Shown: positions 1 to 4,809 of the stretch, in pieces
Position numbering within the stretch: position 1 is the first letter of the stretch
Layout: each line of letters opens with the position of its first letter
Virus record (IMG/VR): IMGVR_UViG_2690316188_000006
Strand: one strand, 5' to 3'
DNA from: a virus
Taxonomy: Duplodnaviria > Heunggongvirae > Uroviricota > Caudoviricetes
Length of the DNA: 5,232 nucleotides
The notes under the pieces: generated by a model
Database searches by the model: none
What the model was told of the DNA's origin: nothing
Seen by the model: the letters and a program-made list of their open reading frames with translations, nothing else
Position numbers and translations under genes: made by a program

Positions 1-135
1 TGCCTGGTGCCTCCAGGTGACGTTAACCAGTTAACAATTAACGCCGGATACAGAGAATCCACCCATAACACTGTTTTTGGTTTTAACTGTTCCGCGTGCG
101 CTCAGCCGCATTCACCACATCACAAAATTCACTTT

Positions 136-193
136 AAAAAGGGCGGCAGAGCAGTCACGGAGTAAAACTGATACCGCCAAACGTCACCAGAAA
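136..193 (-). ncRNA. dicF: DicF antisense sRNA of the dicB-type operon, including its 3' intrinsic terminator
   Basis: Reverse complement of 136-193 reads TTTCTGGTGACGTTTGGCGGTATCAGTTTTACTCCGTGACTGCTCTGCCGCCCTTTTT, which matches DicF as I recall it and ends in GC-rich sequence plus a T5 run. It sits downstream of ydfC-like genes on the same strand, as in Qin. Ends are approximate. Confidence 0.7.
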
Positions 194-316
194 ATTGATA
201 ACAGAGGGCGTTGCAGCGGGGTTGTCACTTAAGCGTATGGTCAACCTGACAACCCGGTGTCCTCAACGGGGGAAGGAATAACCCCGCCATACTTACCGCC
301 GCGCCATTTCGCGGAT

Positions 317-506
317 TGCCACAACCGGAAGCGCACGGTCGACGAAAATTTAACGACAGGCTATCTATGAACCAGCTACCTCGCCGTGCGCTTTCGCGTT
401 ATGGTCTGACTTTTCATGGAAATATCCTTTCAGTAAACTGTCAGTGCCGGATGCTCACCCGTGTCCGGCGCACGCACTCCACCTCACCCGTGGAGAACTC
501 CTTAAT
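317..506. repeat. 190-bp duplicated element, copy R1 (ydfC-dicF intergenic region; putative structured processing region of the DicF precursor)
   Basis: Direct nucleotide comparison: 317-506 equals 1205-1394 except one base (417 T vs 1305 G). Contains a perfect 10-bp inverted repeat (R1 329-338 / 384-393) and a GCCGGA...TCCGGC hairpin. Confidence 0.85.
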
Positions 507-534
507 TACTAACCTTAGCTTTGTTGATTAGCTA

Positions 535-753
535 CTAACGCGGGTATGTAATCATTCTGGCAATGCTTAATGCCGCTGCTTTTTCCAGCCTGGTGATATC
601 CTGCTCCAGAGCGGACAGATTTTCAGCCTGCTTAGCTCTGGCTTCATTGGCCCATTTCAGATCCTGCGCTGCATTAATTTTCTGGTGCATCCACTCATAA
701 AGTTCATCATCGGTATAGTCTGGCGCGATGATGACGGGTTCTCGTTTCTGCAT
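535..753 (-). CDS. ydfC: YdfC-like small prophage protein (72 aa)
   Basis: ORF with GAGGAA 5 nt upstream of ATG at 753. Length and position (third gene of a three-gene cluster upstream of dicF) match Qin ydfC. Name from memory. Confidence 0.75.
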   Translation of the reverse strand: MQKREPVIIAPDYTDDELYEWMHQKINAAQDLKWANEARAKQAENLSALEQDITRLEKAAALSIARMITYPR

Positions 754-782: not shown

Positions 783-911
783 TCAGCCGTTAGATTTTGC
801 CGAACTGGAAAGCGCCTGTTTAAATTCGTTGAAGCTGAGAGCTTCTTCGCCTTCGGCAAGACCTTCGAAGTATTCTTCGTAAGCCTTTTCCATGATTGTG
901 TCGAAATCCAT
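783..911 (-). CDS. ydfB: YdfB-like small acidic protein (42 aa, MDFDTIMEKAYEEYFEGLAEGEEALSFNEFKQALSSSAKSNG)
   Basis: Not in the ORF track (too short). I translated it by hand: ATG at 911-909 preceded by AGGTGAGTG, stop TGA at 785-783. Its start lies 2 nt past the ydfA stop (tight coupling). 42 aa equals the length of K-12 YdfB. Confidence 0.6.
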   Translation of the reverse strand: MDFDTIMEKAYEEYFEGLAEGEEALSFNEFKQALSSSAKSNG

Positions 912-912
912 A

Positions 913-1068
913 TCACTCACCTGAGTTTCTTTCCAGCCAGCGACGGGCACCATTTTCGGTTTTAAACGTTTTGCTTTTGGTATACGTCATCGCGGTGAAC
1001 GTACCGTCCTGGTTGGGAAACACGCCGTACACCAGAGATTCGTTGTTGCCAAGATCGATAGTATCCAT
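913..1068 (-). CDS. ydfA: YdfA-like (DUF1391-type) small prophage protein, 51 aa from the internal ATG; the in-frame ORF extends to 1149 (78 aa)
   Basis: Internal ATG at 1068-1066 has GAGG 5 nt upstream, and the 51-aa product matches K-12 YdfA length. The upstream ATG at 1149 has GAGG at a 9-nt spacing. True start is uncertain. Confidence 0.7.
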   Translation of the reverse strand: MDTIDLGNNESLVYGVFPNQDGTFTAMTYTKSKTFKTENGARRWLERNSGE

Positions 1069-1204
1069 GTTGACCTCATTTCCCCTTAACGCCGGGGTAG
1101 CGGAACAAAAACCTGCTGCATAGTTATTAAAGTTGAACCCTGCCGTCATGTTCTTACGCCTCGGGCTGGCTACTTAACCCCTGACCACTGCCTGGTAACT
1201 CGAA

Positions 1205-1394
1205 TGCCACAACCGGAAGCGCACGGTCGACGAAAATTTAACGACAGGCTATCTATGAACCAGCTACCTCGCCGTGCGCTTTCGCGTTATGGTCTGACTT
1301 TTCAGGGAAATATCCTTTCAGTAAACTGTCAGTGCCGGATGCTCACCCGTGTCCGGCGCACGCACTCCACCTCACCCGTGGAGAACTCCTTAAT
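1205..1394. repeat. 190-bp duplicated element, copy R2 (ectopic copy between orf92 and ydfA)
   Basis: 189/190 identical to R1. Left edge abuts the 134-bp ydfA leader identity block at 1204/1205. To the right, similarity to the R1 flank decays gradually over about 15 bp. Confidence 0.85.
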
Positions 1395-1416
1395 CACCAA
1401 CCCTCAGGAGGGTGAA

Positions 1417-1692
1417 ATGTCGACTGAAAATGATGAAATCATTAACTCCCTGATACGCCAGATTAATAATTTTGATAAAGCATTGCAACATGCTGCGGCG
1501 CGTAGTGATATAACTCTTTTAGCAATTTCATTTCTTGCATCTGTTATGGATAAAAATGAAGTCGTACGACAGAGTCTTGTTGATTATATCGACTCGCTTC
1601 AACCCGGCACTTTCAATCATGAGAGCTTCAATCATGAGAAAGAGCATGTTAAGTCTGTAATTAATTCTCTTATTTTGAATCAAAAGAATTAA
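1417..1692 (+). CDS. Hypothetical protein orf92 (92 aa), unknown function
   Basis: ATG at 1417 with AGGAGG 5 nt upstream, stop TAA at 1690-1692. AT-rich relative to neighbours. Predicted helical with no obvious transmembrane segment. The ORF-track entry 1204-1692 is the same frame extended upstream through R2. Confidence 0.55.
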   Translation: MSTENDEIINSLIRQINNFDKALQHAAARSDITLLAISFLASVMDKNEVVRQSLVDYIDSLQPGTFNHESFNHEKEHVKSVINSLILNQKN

Positions 1693-1990
1693 TGCTTTTT
1701 GTTGCAAAGTAATTTTCAAGGGGTTCTATTCGAATCCCTTTCTTTTTCATTAACAAGCCAAACCCCTTATCAATGATGTCCATTAGATCCAGGAAGTATT
1801 TTTCATGTAAATCCTGGTTATCAGAGAGCTGCTTCTCTTCGTACAGCCCGATAAAGGCTCGGCGTACGTTACCGGATATATTGTCGATGGTTTCTTTTTC
1901 TACGGTACTCAGGTCAAGAGTCGCCAGTTGAGAGCGAACCACATTCGATGCCATTTCCTGGAATGGTACTGGTAAATCTTTAAATTCCAT
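1670..1990 (-). CDS. Hypothetical protein orf106 (106 aa; 110 aa if started at ATG 2002), unknown function
   Basis: ATG at 1990 with GAGG 7 nt upstream. The alternative ATG at 2002 overlaps the ydfA-copy-2 stop (TGATG). Stop at 1672-1670. Its 3' end overlaps orf92 by 23 bp (1670-1692), convergently. Confidence 0.6.
   Translation of the reverse strand: MEFKDLPVPFQEMASNVVRSQLATLDLSTVEKETIDNISGNVRRAFIGLYEEKQLSDNQDLHEKYFLDLMDIIDKGFGLLMKKKGIRIEPLENYFATKSINSFDSK
1720..1747 (+). terminator. Putative intrinsic terminator for orf92
   Basis: GGGGTTC / GAATCCC 7-bp stem (one G-U pair) with 5-nt loop, followed by TTTCTTTTT, starting 28 nt after the orf92 stop. Lies inside the orf106 coding region on the other strand. 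Confidence 0.35.
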
Positions 1991-2001
1991 CGTCAACCTC
2001 A

Positions 2002-2154
2002 TCAGTCAGTGTTTCTGGTTAACCAGCGACGCGCGCCAGCTTCAGTTTTAAACGTTTTGCTTCTGGTATATGTCATCGCGGTAAACGTGCCGTCCTGGTT
2101 GGGAAACACGCCGCATACCAGAGATTCGTTGTTGCCAAGCTCGATAGTATCCAT
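2002..2154 (-). CDS. YdfA-like protein, second diverged copy (50 aa from the internal ATG; in-frame ORF extends to 2235, 77 aa)
   Basis: Paralog of the 913-1068 gene. The 5' 134 bp (2157-2290) is identical to 1071-1204, and divergence increases toward the 3' end. Same RBS arrangement as copy 1. Confidence 0.7.
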   Translation of the reverse strand: MDTIELGNNESLVCGVFPNQDGTFTAMTYTRSKTFKTEAGARRWLTRNTD

Positions 2155-2332
2155 GCTGACCTCATTTCCCCTTAACGCCGGGGTAGCGGAACAAAAACCT
2201 GCTGCATAGTTATTAAAGTTGAACCCTGCCGTCATGTTCTTACGCCTCGGGCTGGCTACTTAACCCCTGACCACTGCCTGGTAACTCGAAGTATTGCCCT
2301 GCATTCTGTGGGGTGGGGTGGGTGGCAGGTAT

Positions 2333-2451: not shown

Positions 2452-2871
2452 TTAAGAGGCTTTTTGTTTTTTCTTTCGTGCTAACTCTTCGTAAATTGCA
2501 TTGTACTTCTGTTTTTTCTCTTCAAGAGTTTTTAAAAGTTCATCTGTCTCACTGTCAGGGAGCTCGTCCAGAAGGTCAATGATGATTTTTTGTCTTGGAT
2601 TTAACTCCTGATAGAAACGTACCTGTCCACTTTCTTCTGTATCCTCTCCCAAAAGATAGGTTGGTGTTGTTCCTATTAGTGTTGCTAATTCCCTTAATTT
2701 CTCCCGGCGAGGAATTGTTTCGCCATTAAACCATTTGCTAACCGCTTTTGGTGTTAATTTCATTCGACGGGCAATTTCTGCCTGCCTTCCATGTTGTTCA
2801 TAACCAGCATTTTCACAGGCTAGCGCAAGCCTACTGGCGAACTCTTTACGCGCTTTATCTTCATGAACCAT
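2452..2871 (-). CDS. Prophage repressor, XRE-family HTH (CI/DicA-like), 139 aa
   Basis: N-terminal HTH_XRE-like segment (QAEIARRMKLTPKAVSKWFNGETIP) and an acidic/helical C-terminal tail reminiscent of DicA. Divergent from the cro-like gene. No SD before ATG 2871 (leaderless-type start). Confidence 0.85.
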   Translation of the reverse strand: MVHEDKARKEFASRLALACENAGYEQHGRQAEIARRMKLTPKAVSKWFNGETIPRREKLRELATLIGTTPTYLLGEDTEESGQVRFYQELNPRQKIIIDLLDELPDSETDELLKTLEEKKQKYNAIYEELARKKKQKAS

Positions 2872-3627: not shown

Positions 3628-3698
3628 CTCGCAATATTCATACCGGATCACTTCCGGCAATTTGTGAGTAAAAAGATTCGGTATCAAAAGAGGTGAGT

Positions 3699-4769
3699 AT
3701 GGCTAACGCCTGGCTCAGATTATGGCATGACATGCCAAATGACCCTAAGTGGCGAACAATTGCCAGGGTGTCAGGGCAGCCAATTGCAACAGTGATGGCA
3801 GTGTATATCCACCTCCTGGTGAGCGCGTCACGAAATGTCACGCGAGGTCACATTGATGTCACGACAGAAGATTTGGCAAGTGCGCTCGACGTGACAGAAG
3901 AGGTAATTGATTCAATTTTGCAGACGATGCAGGGGCGGGTACTTGATGGTGATTTAATCACTGGATGGGAAAAACGCCAGGTGCTTAAAGAGGACAACGG
4001 CAATATTTCGCAAACCGCAAAATCTCCTGCAGAGCGCAAGAGGGCGCAGCGAGAGAGGGAAAGAAAGCGGGAACAAAATGGCGATTGTCACGGCGCGTCA
4101 CGAAATGTCACGCACATGTCACGACGAGTCACGACAGATAAAGATACAGATAAAGATACAGATCAAGAAGATCAAAACACTATGGTCCATGGCGTAAAAA
4201 ACGCCACGAACCAGGCAGGGGATGTTCAGACCGTCAATCCTGGTCAGCCAGCAGGCACGACACCGGAAGCCGATTCAGCGTATGCGCTGAAAGCCGATTC
4301 GGGCGCTGTGCAGCAGGTGATGACCGCAAGGCCGGAGCAATCACACCAACTGCAGCAGCCCGAAGCCGATTCCGCCATTCAGCGGGAAGCCGATCGGGTA
4401 GTCCCGGAAAACACCGGTCAGTCTGTGGGACGAGTGGATTATCCGGATGTGTTCGAACAGGTCTGGCGGGAGTACCCGTTGCGTGCCGGAGCAAACCCGA
4501 AGAAATCCGCTTTCAGTGCCTGGAAGGCCAGATTACGCGAGGGGGTGCCACCAGAGGCCATGCTGGATGGCGTGAGGCGTTACGCAAGATACTTGGCGGC
4601 TACCGGGAAAGCGGGAACGGAATTTGTTCAGCGAGCGACGACGTTTTTTGGACCGGACCGGAATTTTGAGAACCCCTGGTTTCTCCCGGTAAGCGGCACG
4701 AACAACCAGCGTTGTGTGAATCATATTACTGAACCGGATAACGAAATTCCGCCGGGCTTCAGGGGGTAA
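3699..4769 (+). CDS. Phage replisome organizer / replication initiator (lambda O functional analog), 356 aa
   Basis: N-terminus AWLRLWHDMPNDPKWRTIARV... resembles the phage replisome-organizer N-terminal domain. Basic linker ERKRAQRERERKRE. Internal iteron arrays. AGAGG 5 nt before ATG 3699 (the track's GTG at 3693 is an alternative). Stop TAA at 4767-4769. Confidence 0.85.
   Translation: MANAWLRLWHDMPNDPKWRTIARVSGQPIATVMAVYIHLLVSASRNVTRGHIDVTTEDLASALDVTEEVIDSILQTMQGRVLDGDLITGWEKRQVLKEDNGNISQTAKSPAERKRAQRERERKREQNGDCHGASRNVTHMSRRVTTDKDTDKDTDQEDQNTMVHGVKNATNQAGDVQTVNPGQPAGTTPEADSAYALKADSGAVQQVMTARPEQSHQLQQPEADSAIQREADRVVPENTGQSVGRVDYPDVFEQVWREYPLRAGANPKKSAFSAWKARLREGVPPEAMLDGVRRYARYLAATGKAGTEFVQRATTFFGPDRNFENPWFLPVSGTNNQRCVNHITEPDNEIPPGFRG
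3825..3867. repeat. Iteron-like array 1: four GTCAC(G/A) repeats at 10-11 bp spacing inside the replication gene
   Basis: GTCACG at 3827, 3837, 3858 and GTCACA at 3847. 3823-3843 is a 21-bp exact copy of 4093-4113. Confidence 0.5.
4085..4174. other. Putative origin of replication: iteron array 2 (five GTCACG repeats, 10-11 bp period) followed by an AT-rich tract with a tandem 12-mer and two GATC sites
   Basis: GTCACG at 4087, 4097, 4107, 4118, 4128. Then GATAAAGATACA twice (4137-4160) and GATCAAGAAGATC. Lies in the linker region of the initiator gene, as lambda ori lies within O. Confidence 0.5.
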
Positions 4770-4809
4770 GTGTTAATTTCTGGTCATGAGGTAATTTTCA
4801 GGAGGGCTT

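Follow-up and report, generated by a model that had tools for sequence, protein, structure and literature searches.

What are two small, AT-rich genes, facing each other on opposite strands, doing in the leftward early operon of a lambdoid prophage? The question is posed by a stretch of 5,232 nucleotides (nt) from IMG/VR virus record IMGVR_UViG_2690316188_000006, hereafter the window, which covers the immunity and early-left region of an Escherichia coli lambdoid prophage of the Qin/dicB type. The genes, orf92 and orf106, converge and overlap tail to tail. Comparison with related loci indicates that they represent one version of a polymorphic antisense slot that is widespread among enterobacterial lambdoid prophages and lies in their early-left operon. 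In this slot a conserved leader is followed by one of several small genes (the cargo), each convergent with an early-operon gene (the partner).

1417..1692, plus strand: orf92, 91 codons and a stop in the list of open reading frames (ORFs); type A cargo of the antisense slot
1670..1990, minus strand: orf106, 106 codons and a stop; early-operon protein of family phrog_6937
1670..1692, no strand assigned: tail-to-tail overlap of 23 bp, holding the right-hand recombination junction of the orf92 cassette (about 1668-1674)
1612..1641, plus strand: 15-nt tandem duplication in orf92 (FNHES/FNHEK)

The ATG of orf92 at 1417 follows AGGAGG (1406-1411) with a spacer of 5 nt, and the ATG of orf106 at 1988-1990 has GAGG 6 nt ahead of it. 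The ORF list and these Shine-Dalgarno positions agree with the initial annotation, which had given both genes credible ribosome-binding sites and a 23-bp overlap, and had described them as AT-richer than their surroundings. The GC content is 0.348 in orf92 and 0.327 in the C-terminal part of orf106, compared to 0.49-0.50 in the two copies of ydfA and 0.54 in the spacer R2.

The antisense slot and its cargo genes

The order of the operon is repressor, ydfA, (ydfB, ydfC), orf106 family, spacer R2, DicF, dicB. The slot is on the opposite strand, between R2 and the orf106-family gene.

1386..1416, plus strand: leader with the Shine-Dalgarno sequence AGGAGG (1406-1411), conserved ahead of five unrelated-looking cargo genes
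1202..1402, no strand assigned: R2 copy 2, a structured spacer that separates the slot from DicF and is conserved ahead of every cargo type

In the 26 nt at 1386-1411, ahead of orf92, the end of R2 runs into AGGAGG. At least 120 IMG/VR contigs contain exactly the pattern CTCCTTAATYACYAACCCTCAGGAGG, and five different ORF families stand behind it. The left border of the slot is fixed (leader AGGAGG, 4-5 nt, ATG), and the right border lies within the 3' end of the partner gene. The cargo types, with protein lengths in amino acids (aa), are as follows.

Type A / A2 (orf92): 91 aa, MSTENDEI / MGFDVNET; partner of 106 or 109 aa; overlap of 23 or 32 nt
Type B: 77 aa, MLKSTLIA; partner of 135 aa; overlap of 23 nt
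Type C: 92 aa, MDKKQIEA; partner of 133 aa; overlap of 41 nt
Type D: 73 aa, MTSKNVNI; partner of 124 aa; overlap of 11 nt
Type E: 63 aa, MTQEEKVM; partner of 201 aa; overlap of 23 nt
Type F: 100-aa YmfI homolog behind a related R2-type leader of different sequence; partner of 122 aa; overlap of 77 nt

All partners are MEFKDLP-domain proteins, convergent with the cargo and overlapped by it at the 3' end. Cargo types A-D have 35-38% GC (26-33% at third codon positions) and type E has 43%, compared to 48-54% in the flanks. Among 5426 complete E. coli genomes, types A and A2 were found in 198, type B in 659, type C in 127 and type D in 88. In its commonest state, the 124-aa partner gene stands without an antisense gene; this state differs from type D exactly by the missing cargo ORF. 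About 44 of the 80 loci in an IMG/VR sample have a 124-aa allele and no slot gene, 41 of these with ...ESNNKISINH or closely related tails. No prior description of the slot was found in the searches made. The literature on the dicBF operon and on the Rac regulators is silent on these genes, and no papers were found under the RefSeq protein accessions.

Some relatives have a second small gene in antisense orientation, located between ydfC and the repressor and annotated as 'ECs_2282 family putative zinc-binding protein' (locus L004, 3926-4126, plus strand).

Both orf92 and orf106 are genuine genes, beyond chance ORFs. The window allele of orf92 differs from the A2 allele of L004 (84% DNA identity) by 43 substitutions, which create 0 stop codons. 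The ratio of nonsynonymous to synonymous substitution rates (dN/dS) is 0.28 in the annotated frame, compared to 0.44-1.6 in the other five. Of the 32 loci typed A or A2, 29 have an unbroken frame, and the remaining 3 reach the contig end. The L005 allele contains one copy of the 15-nt tandem duplication, an in-frame loss. The dN/dS of orf106 is 0.24-0.31. The Prokaryotic Genome Annotation Pipeline (PGAP) calls orf92 in every genome inspected.

In some genomes PGAP gives a longer ORF, of 145 aa or more, that starts inside R2. The plus strand is open across R2 (1204-1416, in frame with orf92) and likewise at 316-531. This long ORF was considered as the true beginning of orf92 and ruled out by a 1-nt indel in other alleles and by the different phasing in type B. 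Since the R2 extension is not conserved across alleles, 1417 is the likely start, and the call of 145 aa or more is probably over-extended.

The initial annotation recognised neither protein as a Qin/Rac early-operon product, and no characterised homolog of either was found, the searches of Pfam, NCBIfam, PADLOC, PDB sequences and folds being empty or generic; orf106 has an uncharacterised family match, discussed below. Scans of orf92 and orf106 against Pfam, NCBIfam and PADLOC produced no toxin or antitoxin domain, and the sole PADLOC match, BrxA (E 0.014, 12.7 bits), was judged to be due to chance. The other cargo types and their partners yielded nothing above noise in the same three collections, with no PADLOC match for the other cargo types, and PDB sequence searches gave no match. 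The orf92 product is predicted to be acidic (isoelectric point 5.4), all-helical and soluble, with a four-helix model at a predicted local distance difference test (pLDDT) score of 68. The model of orf106 has three long helices (pLDDT 71).

The partner gene and the cassette junction

Although not recognised as an early-operon product in the initial annotation, orf106 is a regular and very common member of dicB-type operons. Residues 1-106 match profile positions 1-106 of 124 in phrog_6937 with E 6e-67. This family has 231 homologs, mostly of 124 aa, and orf106 is 92% identical to the 124-aa members and occupies the same operon position. Genes of this family lie downstream of ydfA or ydfA-ydfB-ydfC and upstream of R2, DicF and dicB, an order retained in loci L001-L007. 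The Qin prophage of K-12 has no member; there ydfC adjoins a 22-nt leader remnant, as in copy 1 of the window. In the window, orf106 is a promoter-proximal gene of the leftward early operon under a DicA-type repressor. Pairing with orf92 is not obligate: orf106-family DNA is present in 1454 of the complete E. coli genomes, compared to 198 for orf92, and most 124-aa copies have no antisense gene.

Residues 1-55 of the family (MEFKDLP...GLYEEK) form a conserved helical domain and are followed by at least four alternative C-terminal arrangements, with products of 124, 133, 135/201 and 122 aa. Both the alignment and the PHROG domain matches confirm a conserved N-domain with variable C-modules. In orf106, codons 1-55 (1826-1990) encode the MEFKDLP N-domain and codons 56-106 a truncated C-module 1. 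No BLAST alignment was obtained between C-module 1 and C-module 2. The N-domain alone recurs in Stx2a phages at 42-46% identity.

Unlike the 124-aa members of its family, orf106 lacks the final 18 residues (HHTSDGKVESNNKISINH). It has neither the full length nor the ...ISINH tail, as the stop comes after codon 106, within the orf92 cassette junction, and the tail is replaced there. The right junction of the cassette is at about 1668-1674; when aligned against the 124-aa alleles, the sequence becomes homologous again at TTTGAATCAAAAGAATTAATGC. For its last 7 codons, orf92 uses DNA that is homologous to the 124-aa gene's tail.

Relatives of orf92 itself are few. Only E. coli alleles with at least 76% identity were detected when 5.8 billion proteins were searched by word index and 1.84 billion representatives exhaustively with HMMER, the latter search otherwise returning orf92 itself and fragments. 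A tblastn search of a phage collection gave no match. A repetitive 1168-aa protein matching orf92 at E 6e-5 in HMMER was taken as compositional and rejected. The best PHROG match of orf92 is phrog_18692 (E 0.022), the family that type C cargo matches at 8e-63. The hhalign comparison of orf92 with type C gave an end-to-end alignment of 78 columns (31% identity, E 0.0011), at a probability of only 21%. A profile search for members intermediate between orf92 and phrog_18692 found none.

It is probable that orf92 is a distant relative of phrog_18692, that is, of the 92-aa type C cargo (MDKKQIEA...), with which it has in common the slot, the leader with its Shine-Dalgarno sequence and approximately the same length. 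However, the C-terminus of orf92 is replaced, and the partners differ. The type C partner is a 133-aa protein with C-module 2 (similar to the N-part of YmfJ) and a 41-nt overlap, whereas the partner of orf92 has C-module 1 in place of C-module 2 and a 23-nt overlap. The profile alignment of orf92 with type C stops at the cassette junction. Since it does, and since the last 7 codons derive from the tail of the 124-aa gene, orf92 appears to have lost its native C-terminus on joining its present partner. Judging from these alignments, orf92 was deprived of its own 3' end and of its usual partner module by recombination, and the 23-bp overlap is a recombination scar that cut both C-termini. Types A and A2 have the junction in common and have since diverged by 16% under purifying selection. 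The cassette was observed with at least four different repressor types.

Counterparts in Rac, e14 and other prophages

The gene order in the Rac prophage of K-12 is racR, ydaG, ydaF (DUF1391), sieB on the other strand (4-nt overlap), the small RNA (sRNA) KilS, and kilR. The gene sieB, known from Rac, lambda and P22, serves superinfection exclusion. The type A order of the window (repressor, ydfA, orf106, orf92 on the other strand, R2, DicF, dicB) follows the same plan. Both sieB and orf92 lie, in the same orientation, between the early small genes and the block of sRNA and division inhibitor. Moreover, R2 blocks can be partly aligned with the kilS-sieB spacer of Rac and with a Salmonella locus. 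Because of the similar gene plan and the alignable spacers, orf92 may be considered the positional counterpart of sieB. The proteins are different: SieB of Rac is a membrane protein of 162 aa (coding sequence of 489 nt), whereas orf92 encodes a 91-aa predicted soluble helical protein. No similarity to SieB was found: at E up to 1, orf92 matched none of the Pfam families, and the phage-collection tblastn search was empty. In phage P22, the antisense RNA sas pairs with the sieB mRNA and switches its translation (PMC12197685, PMC7067206).

KilS (K-12 Rac, L267 2906-3003) and an unannotated Salmonella sequence (L212, about 4725-4775) have in common a terminator of the DicF type (AAAAAGGGCGG…CCGCC). 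Their like placement relative to the slot suggests a DicF-like sRNA family linked to the slot architecture.

Three cargo genes recur with the same partner module in different settings. Homologs of type B from metagenome contigs (57-62% identity) each overlap, by 23-26 nt, a free-standing gene of 76-107 aa directly downstream of a CI/LexA-like repressor; the C-module of the 135-aa partner is its homolog (31% identity, E 1e-13). A Rac-like prophage of Salmonella has a type C gene that shares 41 nt with a free-standing gene of 71 aa, and the latter is 59% identical to the C-module found in the 133-aa partner. In the K-12 prophage e14, ymfK, encoding the repressor, and ymfJ are followed by ymfI, which is convergent with ymfJ and overlaps it by 63 nt. 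YmfI and the type F cargo are 56% identical. YmfJ combines two modules, that of the type C partner in its N-part (73% identity) and that of the 122-aa partner in its C-part. The recurrence of these three as pairs suggests that the cargo is linked to the last module of the partner.

In architecture, ymfJ/ymfI resemble orf106/orf92: a repressor is followed by an early gene and then by a convergent overlapping small gene. The link of e14 to the slot is the YmfI homolog found behind an R2-type leader in a dicB-type operon. On the other hand, YmfI and YmfJ have no detectable similarity to orf92 or to the C-part of orf106, and YmfJ has no MEFKDLP N-domain. One-to-one pairing of C-module and cargo holds for types B, C and F, whereas C-module 1 is found with type A, with type D or with nothing. 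The recurrence of pairs does not settle whether they are functional units, as overlapping genes are co-inherited anyway and orf92/orf106 break the rule.

One may speculate, with some reserve, that ymfJ/ymfI and types B-F belong to an undescribed class of two-gene prophage modules, each consisting of an early-operon module X and a convergent, overlapping small gene Y that follows a conserved leader. Y would be a conflict factor expressed in the lysogen (exclusion, abortive infection or antidote), X its cognate counterpart made only on induction, and the overlap would enforce exclusive expression. In such a scheme orf92 would be a Y beside a foreign X. We consider this possible and rather doubtful.

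Candidate expression signals and competing explanations

Candidate expression signals of orf92 on the plus strand are the following.

1299..1327, plus strand: weak candidate sigma-70 promoter TTTTCA-17-TAAACT (8 of 12 matches in a custom scan), upstream of types A, A2, B, D and E
1718..1750, plus strand: terminator-like hairpin of 9 bp (-11 kcal/mol) with a T-tract, inside orf106, 26 nt past the orf92 stop

The full stem of the hairpin is present at all 50 type A/A2 hits. Among alleles that have no antisense gene, the stem is broken (AG, -6.2 kcal/mol) at 38 of 41 hits. A better promoter match, TTAACA-16-GAGAAT (30-57, plus strand), lies between dicB and DicF and is conserved in L001 and L009. 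A transcript from this site would be antisense to DicF and head towards the slot. The plus strand of R2 folds better than shuffled sequences (z = -3.3); it would be the promoter and 5' untranslated region of orf92, and the minus strand belongs to the DicF precursor.

The pair has excludon geometry: the genes are convergent with overlapping 3' ends, one belonging to a repressed operon and the other presumably transcribed independently. In this case there is the 23-bp overlap of coding regions, and the hairpin lies 48-71 nt into orf106, so that an overlap of 71 nt up to the hairpin is predicted. ExcludonFinder lists ymfI-ymfJ and sieB-ydaF as convergent excludons in K-12 RNA-seq data (PMC12288877). 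Late in the SOS response ymfJ is induced with a log2 fold change of 4.8, and ymfI with about 2 (PMC11002266). Genes antisense to lytic operons are typical morons (PMC7067206).

By analogy, orf92 would be such a prophage accessory gene (moron), transcribed from R2 or from further left while the early operon is repressed, and its transcript could end at the hairpin at 1718-1750. The early-operon transcript would be complementary to the entire orf92 mRNA, including the leader and the Shine-Dalgarno sequence. Since the two units converge and are fully complementary over the orf92 mRNA with its ribosome-binding site, their expression would be mutually exclusive. When the early operon fires, orf92 could be silenced by polymerase collision and antisense pairing, as sas does to sieB. 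Transcription of orf92 in the lysogen, stopping at this hairpin, may oppose leaky read-through to the toxic DicF and dicB. We thus lean, with some caution, towards orf92 being the protein-coding cargo of the antisense slot, a counterpart of sieB by position and an accessory gene expressed in the lysogen under excludon-like control. Our best guess for the protein is a conflict function, either exclusion of other phages or modulation of the adjoining early protein. The initial annotation had proposed an accessory module with antisense or interference control. That part fits the position of sieB and the excludon analogues in K-12 (PMC12288877).

Several observations weigh against this interpretation of orf92. 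The weakest point is the promoter: no strong sigma-70 promoter was found for orf92, the best site within R2 having 8 of 12 matches, and the better site at 30-57 is 1.3 kb away from orf92 in the window, through the duplication described below. No terminator-like hairpin was found downstream of type B cargo, and the correlation of the hairpin with types A and A2 could be explained by shared ancestry alone. The homology with type C is weak (hhalign probability 21%; the PHROG match at E 0.022 falls short of usual significance). The analogy with sieB is positional only, as orf92 does not encode a membrane protein and is not similar to SieB. Finally, the slot is dispensable, since most partner alleles, as well as Qin of K-12, have no antisense gene.

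The other features of the window include the following.

2452-2871, minus strand: DicA-like repressor
2002..2157, minus strand: ydfA copy 2 (DUF1391, Pfam E 9e-28), upstream of orf106 in the operon
913-1068, minus strand: ydfA copy 1
783-911, minus strand: ydfB
535-753, minus strand: ydfC
314-514, minus strand: second R2 copy
141-192, minus strand: DicF (Rfam, 76.7 bits), one copy

The duplicated blocks that the initial annotation saw on both sides of the pair are real: 925-1204 repeats 2011-2290 at 94%, and 314-514 repeats 1202-1402 at 98%. The junction near 1200 (1189-1217), …CTGGTAACTCGAA|TGCCACAACC…, connects DNA from upstream of ydfA with R2 at its left end, at most about 1 nt being common at the join. 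It was not found in the 5426 complete E. coli genomes or in IMG/VR, and the best whole-window match is also without it. Either two operon variants recombined illegitimately in a rare event, or the assembly is chimeric at this point. The window looks like the head of a type A operon (repressor, ydfA, orf106/orf92, R2) joined to an ordinary Qin-type unit ydfA-ydfB-ydfC-R2-DicF. As the pair occurs without the duplication and the junction is absent from these genomes and IMG/VR, the duplication looks like a late, rare join of two ordinary operon variants.

The 5' region of dicB (1-139, minus strand) has a sub-threshold match to STnc100 (28.5 bits compared to a gathering score of 47). The gene of an O-like replisome organizer (3693-4769) contains GTCACG repeats (…CGTCACGAAATGTCACGC…) at 3828-3850 and 4090-4135, which are probably origin iterons; an adjoining short tandem repeat at about 4137-4160 encodes DKDTDKDTD.

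According to the initial annotation, the pair looks like cargo of the rearrangement behind the ydfA and R2 duplications. Its location in the window, between both repeat families, agrees with this. However, the same 631 bp occur at 100% identity without the duplication in L001, the identical pair has the same neighbours (ydfA; R2-DicF-dicB) and no duplication in L001, L007 and about 198 genomes, and the junction near 1200 is absent from all complete genomes and from IMG/VR, which leaves this explanation scarcely credible. It is also very improbable that orf92 is spurious, an ORF arising by chance on the antisense strand where the DNA is AT-rich. Such an ORF would agree with homologs restricted to E. 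coli, with the lack of family matches above thresholds and with a low-confidence structure model, but it would show neither the frame-specific purifying selection, the in-frame indel allele and the strong Shine-Dalgarno sequence, nor PGAP calls in all genomes inspected, and the slot holds other conserved small proteins. A related possibility is that orf92 acts mainly as RNA, insulating the toxic DicF/dicB end by antisense pairing and collision, its ORF being incidental or secondary. The unrelated-looking cargo sequences have only the leader and orientation in common, the orf92 mRNA would be complementary over its full length to the transcript of the operon, the R2 leader has its stable fold, and prophage RNAs acting in antisense are known, namely sas and STnc6030 (PMC7067206). 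Nevertheless, each type has a strong conserved Shine-Dalgarno sequence rightly spaced from the ATG, only the orf92 frame has the dN/dS of 0.28, no complete copy has a broken frame, and type B proteins remain 57-62% identical over large distances. We consider an RNA function of this kind improbable.

Another explanation keeps the protein and makes the two genes cognate antagonists, the antisense protein and the last module of its partner binding or neutralising each other, with orf92/orf106 as one such pair. This could be a lysogen exclusion or abortive-infection factor with early self-immunity, or an early toxic takeover protein with a lysogen antidote. Types B, C and F are kept as pairs, both fused to the N-domain in dicB-type operons and free-standing by CI-like repressors, and the conserved N-domain with variable C-modules is reminiscent of polymorphic effectors. 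The opposite expression states implied by the convergent layout suit an effector/immunity logic; in pore-forming colicins the immunity gene is likewise convergent with the colicin gene. However, orf92, related to type C, has C-module 1 next to it, and BLAST gives no alignment of this module with that of the type C partner. C-module 1 is also found next to type D cargo, which is unrelated, and in most cases has no antisense gene at all, the junction cut the C-termini of both orf92 and orf106, and there are no matches to toxin, antitoxin or defence domains. Co-inheritance of overlapping genes is expected in any case, because any breakpoint between them damages both. Cognate antagonism of orf92 and orf106 seems unlikely to us.

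The slot is very frequent in lambdoid prophages of E. coli (including O157:H7 and ST131) and Salmonella, and all its cargo genes and partner modules are annotated as hypothetical only. A fixed expression site with interchangeable AT-rich cargo, at the place that sieB has in Rac, is the signature of a conflict hot spot. As the slot is immediately upstream of the toxic block, its convergent transcription could alter the tightness of DicF/DicB silencing. The locus would gain in interest should the X/Y pairs turn out to be cognate conflict modules, and K-12 itself holds an example, ymfI/ymfJ. The six small proteins form a short list of candidates for phage exclusion or for tuning of prophage induction.

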